Below, in pieces: positions 3,848 through 35,247 of a stretch of DNA of 64,000 bases. The notes beneath the pieces were generated by a model that saw nothing but the letters and a program-made list of their open reading frames with translations, was not told the DNA's origin and did no database searches. Origin of the DNA: Escherichia coli. Its GTDB lineage: Bacteria > Pseudomonadota > Gammaproteobacteria > Enterobacterales > Enterobacteriaceae. The stretch is from assembly GCF_003018255.1 (NCBI RefSeq), contig NZ_CP027440.1; one strand, given 5' to 3'. The position numbers and the translations under genes were made by a program. Each line of letters begins with the position of its first letter. Positions within the stretch are counted from its first letter, which is position 1.

Positions 3848-3946
3848 GCCTGATGCGCTATGCTTATCAGGCCTACGCAGTACCTGCAATATATTGAATC
3901 TGCAGGACTTTGTAGGCCGGATAAGGCGTTAACGCCGCATCAGGCA
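3848..3946. repeat. BIME: two oppositely oriented REP elements between convergent ybiT and ybiU
   Basis: GCCTGATGCGCTATGCTTATCAGGCCTAC and GTAGGCCGGATAAGGCGTTAACGCCGCATCAGGCA match the E. coli REP consensus in inverted orientation. Confidence 0.8.
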
Positions 3947-11367: not shown

Positions 11368-12602
11368 TACAGGCCTCCGAACAACGCGTTAAATGGTTCT
11401 ACTTCCACCCATTCGCCCGCTTCTACATTGCCGCGCTCGCGTTCCAGTACGATAAAGCAGTTGCCGAGGCTAAAAGAGCTAAATATATGTGAGCCCTGAT
11501 GCCCGGTGGTGGTGACTTCCAGTTCACCGTCAGCATTACGTTGCAGCACGCCGCGCTGGAAATCAAGGCGTCCTGGCGATTTCTTCAGAGGCGATGTCGT
11601 GCGTACGCGCTGACGCGCGGGCAGGCCGCTGGCGGTGTTGCCGCTCAATTTTGCCAGTAACGGCTGTACCAGTTGATAGAAGGTCAGCGTTGCTGAAACC
11701 GGATTACCCGGCAGGCCGCAGAACCAGCTATTGCTGAGTTTACCGAACGCGAACGGTTTACCCGGTTTAATCGCCAGCTTCCAGAAGGCGATTTCACCCA
11801 GCTCTTCGAGAATGGTTTTGGTGTAATCCGCTTCACCCACTGAAACACCGCCGGAACTGATCACTACATCCGCCTGGCTGTCGGCTTCAATAAATGCGGC
11901 GCGCAGGGCATGGGGATCGTCGCGGATAATCCCTAAGTTGATTACCTCGCAACCCAGCTGTTCTAACATCAGGTGTACGGCGAGACGGTTGGTATCGTAG
12001 ATTTGGCCATCGCCCAGTGGCTGACCAGGCAACTGGAGTTCATCACCGGTAGAAAACAGCGCTACACGCACTTTACGAATCACCGGAACTTCGGCAATCC
12101 CCAGTGAAGCAATCACTGGCAGTTCAGCGGTAGTCAGGCGAGTTCCCGCCGGGAAAACAACCGCACCTGCAGAGATATCTTCACCGCGACGGCGAATATT
12201 TTGCCCGCTACGCACTTCAGCAGTAAAACGCACGCCATTGTCCGTTTGTTCAGTCTGCTCCTGCATCACCACCCCTTCGCAGCCTTCTGGCACCGGCGCA
12301 CCGGTCATAATACGAATGCAGGTACCCGCAGGCCATTCACCATGGTACGGCTGACCGGCAAAGGATTTACCGGCAACGGGCAGCGGTTGCCCGGAGGCAA
12401 TATCGGCTAAACGCACCGCGTAGCCGTCCATAGCGGAGTTATCAAACCCCGGGACATCCAGTGGCGAAACGACATCGCTCGCCAGAATACGACCAAAACA
12501 CTGAACCAGTGGCAGCGTTTCCTGGGCGGTCAGTGGGGTAACGCGAGAAAGCATCTCATTAAGCGCGGTGTCGAGCGACATCAATCCGGTGGTAAATTCC
12601 AT
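11367..12602 (-). CDS. moeA: Molybdopterin molybdenumtransferase
   Basis: 411-aa ORF matching MoeA; translationally coupled to moeB (ATGA overlap). Confidence 0.9.
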
Positions 12603-12805
12603 GAAAACACTCCTGCGGAGGCAAAATCGAATTTGCCTATTATGTCAGAAAAACGCCACAGACTGTATGCCACCTCGGGCGTAGTGCTGGCTCCTGCCTT
12701 TACATGCCATATCCATCTTTCTATATTCAAAAATTGAATGAGTAATTCATAAAAATTCTGATATTTATAGCAAAAGTGGCGAGCCACCCTTAATGGACGA
12801 ATACT

Positions 12806-13771
12806 ATGGGCAAAGCTGTCATTGCAATTCATGGCGGCGCAGGTGCAATTAGCCGCGCGCAGATGAGTCTGCAACAGGAATTACGCTACATCGAGGCGCT
12901 GTCTGCCATTGTTGAAACCGGGCAGAAAATGCTGGAAGCGGGCGAAAGTGCGCTGGATGTGGTGACGGAAGCGGTGCGTCTGCTGGAAGAGTGTCCACTG
13001 TTTAACGCCGGAATTGGCGCTGTCTTTACGCGTGATGAAACCCATGAACTGGACGCCTGTGTGATGGATGGTAACACCCTGAAAGCCGGTGCGGTGGCGG
13101 GCGTTAGTCATCTGCGTAATCCGGTTCTTGCCGCCCGGCTGGTGATGGAGCAAAGCCCGCATGTGATGATGATTGGCGAAGGGGCAGAAAATTTTGCGTT
13201 TGCTCATGGCATGGAGCGCGTCTCGCCGGAGATTTTCTCCACGCCTTTGCGTTATGAACAACTACTGGCAGCGCGCGAGGAAGGGGCAATGGTTCTCGAC
13301 CATAGCGGTGCGCCACTGGATGAAAAACAGAAAATGGGCACCGTGGGGGCCGTGGCGTTGGATTTAGACGGCAATCTGGCGGCAGCCACGTCCACGGGCG
13401 GAATGACCAATAAATTACCCGGACGAGTTGGCGATAGTCCCTTAGTGGGGGCCGGATGCTACGCCAATAACGCCAGTGTGGCGGTTTCATGTACCGGCAC
13501 GGGCGAAGTCTTCATCCGCGCGCTGGCGGCATATGACATCGCCGCGTTAATGGATTACGGCGGATTAAGTCTCGCGGAAGCCTGCGAGCGGGTAGTAATG
13601 GAAAAACTCCCTGCGCTTGGCGGTAGCGGTGGCTTAATCGCTATCGACCATGAAGGTAACGTCGCGCTACCGTTTAACACCGAAGGAATGTATCGCGCCT
13701 GGGGCTACGCAGGCGATACGCCAACCACCGGTATCTACCGTGAAAAAGGGGACACCGTTGCCACACAGTGA
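12806..13771 (+). CDS. iaaA: Isoaspartyl dipeptidase / L-asparaginase (Ntn hydrolase)
   Basis: 321-aa ORF with the autoproteolytic GTVGAV threonine site; overlaps the gsiA start. Confidence 0.9.
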
Positions 13772-15629
13772 TGAACTTGATGCCGGTGATGTGCTGGCGG
13801 TTGAAAATCTGAATATTGCCTTTATGCAGGACCAGCAGAAAATAGCTGCGGTCCGCAATCTCTCTTTTAGCCTGCAACGCGGTGAGACGCTGGCAATTGT
13901 TGGCGAATCCGGCTCTGGTAAGTCAGTGACTGCGCTGGCATTGATGCGTCTGTTGGAACAGGCGGGCGGTTTAGTGCAGTGCGATCAAATGCTGTTGCGG
14001 CGGCGCAGTCGTGAAGTGATTGAACTTAGCGAGCAGAGCGCTGCACAAATGCGCCATGTGCGCGGTGCGGATATGGCGATGATATTTCAGGAGCCGATGA
14101 CATCGCTGAACCCGGTATTTACTGTGGGTGAACAGATTGCTGAATCTATTCGTCTGCATCAAAACGCCAGTCGTGAAGAAGCAATGGTCGAGGCGAAGCG
14201 GATGCTGGATCAGGTACGCATTCCGGAGGCACAAACCATTCTTTCACGTTATCCGCATCAACTCTCTGGCGGGATGCGCCAGCGAGTGATGATTGCGATG
14301 GCACTGTCATGCCGCCCGGCGGTGCTGATTGCCGATGAGCCAACCACCGCGCTGGATGTCACTATTCAGGCGCAGATCCTGCAATTAATCAAAGTATTGC
14401 AAAAAGAGATGTCGATGGGCGTTATCTTTATCACTCACGATATGGGCGTGGTGGCAGAGATTGCCGATCGGGTACTGGTGATGTATCAGGGCGAGGCGGT
14501 GGAAACGGGTAGCGTCGAACAGATTTTTCATGCACCGCAACATCCTTACACCCGTGCGCTGTTAGCTGCTGTTCCGCAACTTGGTGCGATGAAAGGGTTA
14601 GATTATCCCCGACGTTTCCCATTGATATCGCTTGAACATCCAGCAAAACAGGAACCACCCATCGAGCAGAAAACGGTGGTGGATGGCGAACCTGTTTTAC
14701 GGGTGCGTAATCTGGTCACCCGTTTCCCTTTGCGCAGCGGTTTGTTGAATCGCGTAACGCGGGAAGTGCATGCCGTTGAGAAAGTCAGTTTTGATCTCTG
14801 GCCTGGCGAAACGCTATCGCTGGTGGGCGAGTCTGGCAGCGGTAAATCCACTACCGGGCGGGCGTTGCTGCGCCTGGTCGAATCGCAGGGCGGCGAAATT
14901 ATCTTTAACGGTCAGCGAATCGATACCTTGTCATCCGGTAAACTTCAGGCTTTGCGCCGGGATATTCAGTTTATTTTTCAGGACCCTTACGCTTCGCTGG
15001 ACCCACGTCAGACCATCGGTGATTCGATTATCGAACCGCTGCGCGTACACGGTTTATTGCCAGGTAAAGAAGCGGCTGCACGCGTTGCGTGGTTGCTGGA
15101 GCGCGTGGGCCTGTTACCGGAACATGCCTGGCGTTACCCGCATGAGTTTTCCGGCGGTCAGCGCCAGCGCATCTGCATTGCTCGCGCGTTGGCATTGAAT
15201 CCAAAAGTGATCATTGCCGACGAAGCCGTCTCGGCGCTGGATGTTTCTATTCGCGGGCAGATTATCAACTTGTTGCTCGATCTCCAGCGTGATTTCGGCA
15301 TTGCGTATCTGTTTATCTCCCACGATATGGCCGTGGTAGAGCGGATTAGTCATCGTGTGGCGGTGATGTATCTCGGACAAATTGTTGAAATTGGTCCACG
15401 GCGCGCGGTCTTCGAAAACCCGAAGCATCCTTATACGCGTAAATTACTGGCGGCAGTTCCGGTCGCTGAACCGTCCCGACAACGACCGCAGCGTGTACTG
15501 CTGTCGGACGATCTTCCCAGCAATATTCATCTGCGTGGCGAAGAGGTTGCAGCCGTCTCGTTGCAATGCGTCGGGCCGGGGCATTACGTCGCACAACCAC
15601 AATCAGAATACGCATTCATGCGTAGATAA
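13758..15629 (+). CDS. gsiA: Glutathione ABC importer ATPase (two fused ABC domains)
   Basis: TTG start giving [10 protein letters not shown]; two Walker A motifs (GESGSGKS twice); the ORF track start at 13650 is an upstream extension. Confidence 0.85.
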
Positions 15630-35149: not shown

Positions 35150-35168
35150 TAGATAAATTTTAGACAAC

Positions 35169-35247
35169 AAAAAACCCACCAACCTTGAACCGAAATGGCG
35201 GGGTTGATGGGCTCCACAAAATGGGGACATCAAAGAAAAGCAGTGGC
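35169..35247 (-). ncRNA. rybB: RybB small RNA (sigma-E-dependent, Hfq-binding)
   Basis: Minus-strand read GCCACTGCTTTTCTTTGATGTCCCCATTTTGTGGAGCCCATCAACCCCGCCATTTCGGTTCAAGGTTGGTGGGTTTTTT matches RybB, including the terminator hairpin and U-tail. Confidence 0.9.

Follow-up and report, generated by a model that had tools for sequence, protein, structure and literature searches.

We analyzed the junction of iaaA and gsiA in a 64,000-nt stretch of Escherichia coli DNA (contig NZ_CP027440.1), referred to below as the window. A first-pass annotation had placed a 14-nt overlap of the two genes here, in which gsiA would start at a TTG within the final iaaA codons. Both are present: the overlap occupies 13758..13771 on the plus strand, with gsiA and iaaA in different frames, and runs from the TTG at 13758-13760 to the iaaA TGA at 13769-13771. 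The features of the locus, with the evidence for each, are:

12699..12730, plus strand: putative iaaA-gsiABCD promoter, TTTACA-17-TATATT, with core CTTTCTATATTCA at 12718-12730 (consensus scan and conservation)
12806..13771, plus strand: iaaA CDS, isoaspartyl peptidase / EcAIII, 321 aa (ORF, Pfam, PDB EcAIII matches, RefSeq)
13650..13652, plus strand: ATG of the mechanical 659-aa ORF, judged unused (no Shine-Dalgarno sequence, hairpin, iaaA-only variation, upstream stops)
13745..13747, plus strand: AAA, Lys314 of IaaA, the probable ancestral iaaA stop position, TAA in other genera (junction alignment)
13745..13752, plus strand: predicted Shine-Dalgarno sequence (SD) of gsiA, AAAGGGGA, inside iaaA codons 314-316 (-7.8 kcal/mol with the 16S 3' end)
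13758..13760, plus strand: TTG start codon of gsiA (homologue conservation; K-12 and PGAP annotation)
13758..13771, plus strand: iaaA/gsiA overlap, 14 nt (direct reading; identical across sampled RefSeq E. coli records)
13758..15629, plus strand: gsiA CDS, fused double ABC ATPase of the glutathione importer, 623 aa (ORF, Pfam, RefSeq product name)
13769..13771, plus strand: iaaA TGA stop, probably derived (sequence and junction alignment)
13791..13793, plus strand: GTG, rival start (612 aa), judged an internal Val codon (weak SD; synonymous drift in homologues)

The iaaA 3' end reads ...GTT GCC ACA CAG TGA, and its TGA falls within codons 4-5 of gsiA (AGT GAT). The gsiA frame is open after a TAA at 13635-13637, i.e. 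from 13638, and its first ATG is at 13650; the reported extension of the gsiA ORF to that point was also found, as a mechanical ORF at 13650..15629 with an ATG start and 659 aa. TTG 13758-13760 shares this frame (13758-13650 = 108) and gives a product of 623 aa.

IaaA matched Asparaginase_2 (PF01112, E 2.6e-116, residues 5-310) and the chains of crystallised EcAIII (PDB 2ZAK, 1JN9, 1K2X and others), which identifies it as an Ntn-hydrolase isoaspartyl peptidase. GsiA matched ABC_tran (PF00005, E 1.3e-63) and oligo_HPY (PF08352) twice each, and is a fused Opp/Dpp-family ABC ATPase with two ABC_tran domains and an oligo_HPY C-terminal region on each. The solved structures closest to GsiA were Rv1281c and DppD; no structure of GsiA itself was found in the PDB. 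Rfam and tRNA scans gave no matches at the junction. Elsewhere in the window, two small RNAs matched at Rfam gathering score, RybB (35166-35244, minus strand, 104 bits) and ES036/CssrF (3869-3911, minus strand, 41.6 bits, just over the 37.6 cut-off).

Neither the TTG start nor the 14-nt overlap is new, as both stand in the existing reference annotation. K-12 MG1655 has iaaA (b0828) at 866568..867533 and gsiA (b0829, NP_415350.2) at 867520..869391, which likewise overlap by 14 nt, and start codon, protein length and junction 60-mer are all identical to those of the window; nothing substantive differs, and the window GsiA is 98.6% identical to K-12 GsiA. The residue differences between the two proteins are several, e.g. 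Asp11 in the window for Asn11 in K-12. PGAP annotates the identical junction in GF43, W3110, EDL933, PV15-279, an O145:H28 strain and an ExPEC strain. An exact copy of the junction 60-mer is carried by 5131 of 5422 complete E. coli genomes, and a 701-nt junction query had matches in 5425 of 5426 (best identity 99.4%, strain GF43). The window allele of this 701-nt segment (13400-14100) is uncommon, with only 357 of the 5425 genomes at 99% identity or above. The ExPEC strain (NZ_CM172609.1; L085 2859-4953) has a split gsiA, a 510-aa CDS plus a partial pseudogene, apparently via frameshift or rearrangement, and its annotation still has the TTG start with the 14-nt overlap.

TTG 13758 as the start codon of gsiA

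The gsiA frame offers five start candidates, ATG 13650, GTG 13740, TTG 13758, GTG 13791 and ATG 13824. To compare them we took one locus per species, 80 orthologous loci that range from Escherichia to the Burkholderiales, and located iaaA and gsiA in each; the retrieved loci exclude S. enterica and S. bongori. Of 39 Enterobacteriaceae-like sequences, 34 have a start codon (15 GTG, 12 TTG and 7 ATG) at the homologue of TTG 13758. This codon interchanges among the three start codons, and a non-start synonym was never seen at these 34 loci. The remaining five sequences have their start within -15 to +9 nt, where the N-terminal alignment is unreliable and falls short of residue 1. Salmonella diarizonae has no candidate start other than the homologous GTG. 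Homologues of longer GsiA forms are excluded in 18 of the 34 loci by a stop codon in frame, 12-51 nt ahead of the gsiA start.

The pattern of substitution on the two sides of the TTG was also examined. Upstream, over -108..-1 (13650-13757), diversity at gsiA-frame positions 1, 2 and 3 was 0.02, 0.34 and 0.04 in the eight genomes with the overlap. Since the variable gsiA-frame second position is the iaaA third codon position, to which variation is confined, this stretch is constrained as iaaA alone. Downstream, gsiA codons 2-11 (PHSDELD...) are conserved as protein in genera with no overlapping gene there: codon differences across 20 non-overlap loci divide into 344 synonymous and 1124 non-synonymous when read in the gsiA frame, and into 140/1378 and 135/1345 when read in the two alternative frames. 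This 2.5-fold in-frame synonymous excess shows that these codons are translated and therefore argues against a start at GTG 13791.

TTG is a weak start codon. The SD predicted for gsiA, AAAGGGGA, lies at -13 to -6 with a spacing of ~5-6 nt to the TTG; no stronger one lies in 13600-13900, and among the 3112 start-like triplets on the plus strand of the window it falls within the best 2.8%. The rival starts gave -3.0, -3.0, -1.5 and +0.4 kcal/mol versus -7.8 at the TTG. With a start codon at anti-SD spacing and a position conserved in orthologues, TTG 13758 is on comparative grounds a predicted SD-led initiation site. Homologue conservation, the best local SD and the reference annotation thus agree with the proposal that it is the best-supported gsiA start.

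Experimental data on this start were also sought. The literature on the gsiA start site yielded nothing, and gsiA was unlisted in the N-terminomics supplements of TRAINSPOTTER and of the 'Proteins a la carte' riboproteogenomics study; one paper states that gsiABCD is operonic and located with iaaA, and nothing further (PMC10355420). Published retapamulin data gave 0 reads at the gsiA translation initiation site (TIS), both by in vivo Ribo-RET and by cell-free INRI-seq (PMC9825163 Tables S2, S3). INRI-seq assays the isolated gsiA translation initiation region (TIR; -30 to ~+125), and the TTG had 0 CPM in five of five replicates, although gsiB, gsiC and gsiD gave a signal at their TISs; no other codon was called as a TIS of gsiA (PMC9825163). 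The method detected ~70% of annotated TISs overall and misses ~30%, iaaA included (PMC9825163), and these data are uninformative for the gsiA start. The annotated iaaA start (window 12806; K-12 866568) had 0 CPM in four of five INRI-seq replicates, and an in-frame ATT at +15 (K-12 866582) was called instead as an alternative iaaA TIS (PMC9825163).

Origin of the overlap

Alignment of the orthologous junctions suggests how the overlap arose. In at least 17 loci of other genera (Enterobacter, Leclercia, Klebsiella, Kosakonia-like, Trabulsiella, Siccibacter, Salmonella and others) the iaaA end reads GAA/GAG TAA GG, with the TAA 9-12 nt before the gsiA start. In these genera iaaA ends ...GGN ATY TAY CGN GAA TAA, and the TAA runs into the gsiA SD (TAAGGRG). 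Escherichia (E. coli, the lineage L003 and E. albertii) and four Citrobacter species have GAA AAA GG at the homologous place. The ancestral iaaA would accordingly have ended in Tyr-Arg-Glu followed by a TAA that was itself part of the gsiA SD, and a T-to-A change in Escherichia and Citrobacter would have turned this TAA into AAA at 13745-13747. IaaA would thereby have been extended by eight residues (KGDTVATQ) to the next in-frame TGA; the gsiA start would have stayed put while iaaA grew into gsiA. On this evidence the 14-nt overlap probably exists because iaaA lost its former stop codon, and it reads as a derived accident, a recent by-product of stop loss at an ordinary operon junction, and not as a designed coupling device.

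The added tail lies outside the Asparaginase_2 domain, which ends at residue 310, and the EcAIII beta chain in PDB 2ZAL_B was deposited only to residue 315. The proposed change resembles other C-terminal extensions by stop-codon loss, with a single-base TAA to AAA change and a short tail beyond the conserved domain. It differs from the typical case in that the read-through enters the next gene and the lost stop belonged to the downstream SD. Because the read-through enters gsiA, codons 1-4 of that gene determine the last four IaaA residues (VATQ).

Which state of this codon is ancestral was judged by the outgroup majority. In standard phylogenies Citrobacter is a closer relative of Salmonella than of Escherichia; on that branching order, an AAA common to Escherichia and Citrobacter would need two events, a reversal, or gene exchange. 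Other junction types also occur: Buttiauxella, Cedecea and Pluralibacter have -1 junctions (TGATG or TAATG), Rahnella and Erwinia have -4 junctions, and the iaaA-gsiA gaps in Betaproteobacteria are ~20-100 nt.

Operon context and loss of iaaA

A consensus scan of 12400-14200 found a single sigma-70-like site, TTTACA-17-TATATT at 12699-12727. The core of this site, CTTTCTATATTCA, recurs in 42 sequences. Loci with an intact iaaA have it ~85-150 nt before that gene, and loci without one have it 58-207 nt before gsiA. The conserved iaaA upstream region (12699-12781) holds a second conserved leader motif, TGATATTTATAGcAAAAG, at ~12760-12778, and both CTTTCTATATTCA and TGATATTTATAGcAAAAG recur across Enterobacteriaceae, loci without iaaA included. 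The region may serve as a regulator site; it had no match to an Rfam family.

A scan for terminators between iaaA and gsiA gave no convincing one. A terminator-like match at 13770..13753 on the minus strand needs a G-T pair and reads as a broken 5-bp stem on the mRNA strand, and we attributed it to chance. The genes are co-directional, with neither promoter nor terminator intervening in the consensus scans and conservation analysis, and iaaA lies directly before gsiA in ~71 of 79 assessable loci, Betaproteobacteria included. Co-transcription of iaaA and gsiA, for which we infer use of the promoter upstream of iaaA, is well supported by these comparisons. Expression of the operon responds to limiting sulfur or to glutathione supplied as the sulfur source. 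The betaproteobacterial loci with this synteny (L055-L082) include Achromobacter, Bordetella, Paraburkholderia, Variovorax, Caballeronia and others, and their GsiA is 65-70% identical. The persistence of the gene pair there points to a conserved functional link of the isoaspartyl peptidase with the glutathione importer.

Repeated losses have removed iaaA from its place between the operon promoter and gsiA, each time with the gsiA SD and start retained. S. diarizonae (L072 2273-2511) keeps the 5'UTR and the last 18 iaaA codons. In L059 (2338-2490) a mini-ORF of ~55 codons joins iaaA codons 1-17 to codons 275-316 and ends TAA-SD-GTG. In five other loci (L010, L020, L025, L026 and L030) the promoter motif stands directly upstream of gsiA. 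Within E. coli, O157:H7-type strains carry a nonsense allele, iaaA Q116*, in which the CAA at window 13151-13153 (Gln116; L086 952-954, L087) is TAA. It lies ~600 nt upstream of an intact 623-aa gsiA, and PGAP annotates iaaA as a pseudogene in EDL933 and PV15-279. A search of 5342 complete E. coli genomes for the exact 61-mer with the Q116* TAA gave 297 carriers.

Translational coupling

The first-pass annotation had taken the overlap to imply tight coupling of the two genes, which is plausible from the geometry, the single conserved promoter and the absent terminator. We propose that gsiA would be initiated by an ordinary SD at TTG 13758, with its ribosome binding site within the last iaaA codons. 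Ribosomes finishing iaaA would traverse the gsiA TTG and terminate 11 nt beyond it, and by the geometry a ribosome terminating at 13769-71 would cover both the gsiA SD and the TTG. Because iaaA ribosomes would pass the TTG and terminate so close to it, some translational coupling, by unfolding or re-initiation, is likely, although its contribution is one that we infer. It is probably non-essential, since the gsiA start has its own strong SD and still functions in lineages that lack iaaA.

The junction was compared with known coupled short-overlap pairs (-4 NTGA, -1 TGATG/TAATG, and -8; PMC6728339, PMC10666635, PMC12548453). Like them, iaaA and gsiA are co-directional in one operon, the downstream SD lies inside the upstream gene, and the stop is within the ribosome footprint of the start. 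The overlap is also short (<30 nt), but its spacing of -14 differs from the -4, -1 and -8 that are enriched among coupled pairs (review PMC12548453). Two types of orthologous junction are canonical for coupled pairs, the -1 of Buttiauxella and Cedecea and the -4 of Rahnella and Erwinia. Since the iaaA stop is 11 nt downstream of the gsiA start, re-initiation would need backward movement.

Strict coupling would go further. The TTG would be silent alone, and GsiA would be made only by iaaA ribosomes, either by scanning back 11 nt upstream from 13769-71 or by opening a hairpin that sequesters the SD. The zero counts for the isolated gsiA TIR in all five INRI-seq replicates, and for gsiA in Ribo-RET in vivo, would fit this reading, as would the weak TTG codon, but iaaA itself was among the starts that INRI-seq missed. 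The junction spacings in Enterobacterales are almost all compatible with coupling (-14, -4, -1, or +7 to +12 nt), and coupling efficiency is highest at short distances (PMC12548453). For the hairpin route, the minimum free energy (MFE) fold does pair the G-run of the SD (13748-13751) with 13735-13739. The fold of 13728-13802 is no better than that of shuffled sequence, however (z = 0.10), the MFE of the TIR (-9.7 kcal/mol) is only modestly below those of neighbouring genes, and inspection by eye showed no conservation of the G-run hairpin in Citrobacter or E. albertii. The SD region had an unpaired probability of 0.53, and accessibility of SD plus start resembled that of gsiB and gsiC. We rejected mRNA structure as the basis of coupling, as the comparison with shuffles gave no indication of an inhibitory structure. 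The strength of the gsiA SD also stands against strict coupling, as do the seven loci, S. diarizonae among them, that retain the gsiA start and SD with iaaA absent or a remnant, and the O157:H7-type genomes in which gsiA stays intact downstream of Q116*. We therefore consider strict coupling unlikely.

A related reading gives the stop loss itself a cost. In Escherichia the change, which altered TAAGGAG to AAAGGGG and shifted iaaA termination from upstream to downstream of the gsiA start, might have weakened stand-alone initiation at the gsiA TTG, and GsiA synthesis would now be obligatorily coupled to iaaA translation. If this were true, the O157:H7-type Q116* allele would silence the glutathione importer translationally, with no lesion in gsiABCD. 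We regard obligatory coupling of this kind as distinctly improbable; SD-led initiation at TTG 13758 with non-essential coupling is the reading that we retain.

Alternative start codons and circulating N-termini

The expectation that automated gene callers may mis-start gsiA was borne out, since K-12 GsiA is public in six N-terminal versions:

623 aa: TTG, offset 0, at least 1000 contigs, the dominant form by far
612 aa: GTG +33, 12 contigs, including BAA35517.2, ACT38478.1 and BAL37968.1
656 aa: ATG -99, 12 contigs
659 aa: ATG -108, 6 contigs
629 aa: GTG -18, 3 contigs
601 aa: ATG +66, 3 contigs

BAA35517.2, with the 612-aa form, is presumably the W3110 GenBank record. This form would start at GTG 13791, 19 nt after the iaaA stop; there would then be no overlap, and the TTG would be an in-frame coincidence. 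Besides the deposited records, alignments to ABC ATPases of known structure start only at residue 12, the Val encoded by GTG 13791, so the ABC ATPase fold would not need residues 1-11. The GGTGAT directly before this GTG has partial anti-SD complementarity, and the TTG was detected in no experiment; INRI-seq called no TIS at GTG 13791 either. The SD of GTG 13791 reaches only -3.0 kcal/mol and is essentially without spacer. The homologous codon was GTG in 23 loci and GTT, GTA, GTC or ATC in 11 of 34, with a non-start codon in the Escherichia lineage L003 (GTA), in three of four Citrobacter and in Salmonella, and four of the loci (L005, L007, L008 and L072) have no alternative start codon downstream through codon 25. 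Judged by these homologues, GTG 13791 behaves like an ordinary valine codon under synonymous drift. Together with the synonymous excess in codons 2-11, this makes a start at GTG 13791 very improbable.

A start further upstream, at ATG 13650 (659 aa, 122-nt overlap) or GTG 13740 (629 aa, 32-nt overlap), is allowed by the ORF being open from 13638 and has been called in the contigs listed above, but comparative data effectively refute it. Neither codon has an SD (-1.5 and -3.0 kcal/mol, respectively), ATG 13650 sits within a -16.7 kcal/mol hairpin, GTG 13740 is not conserved even within Escherichia (GCG in L003 and L004; GGG in Citrobacter), and the iaaA-only variation and the in-frame stops described above speak against both.

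We thus put at roughly 0.85 the probability that gsiA starts at TTG 13758 by SD-led initiation, that iaaA and gsiA are co-transcribed, that the overlap is derived via stop loss and that coupling is probably non-essential. On the comparative evidence, the current RefSeq/PGAP start of gsiA appears both consistent and correct. The main value of the result is annotation hygiene: confirming the TTG is useful because five other GsiA N-termini circulate in public databases. Beyond this, the analysis adds three modest points: the overlap probably originated by stop loss, iaaA has disappeared recurrently from between the promoter and gsiA, and the nonsense allele of O157:H7 would serve as a natural test of iaaA-gsiA coupling and polarity.
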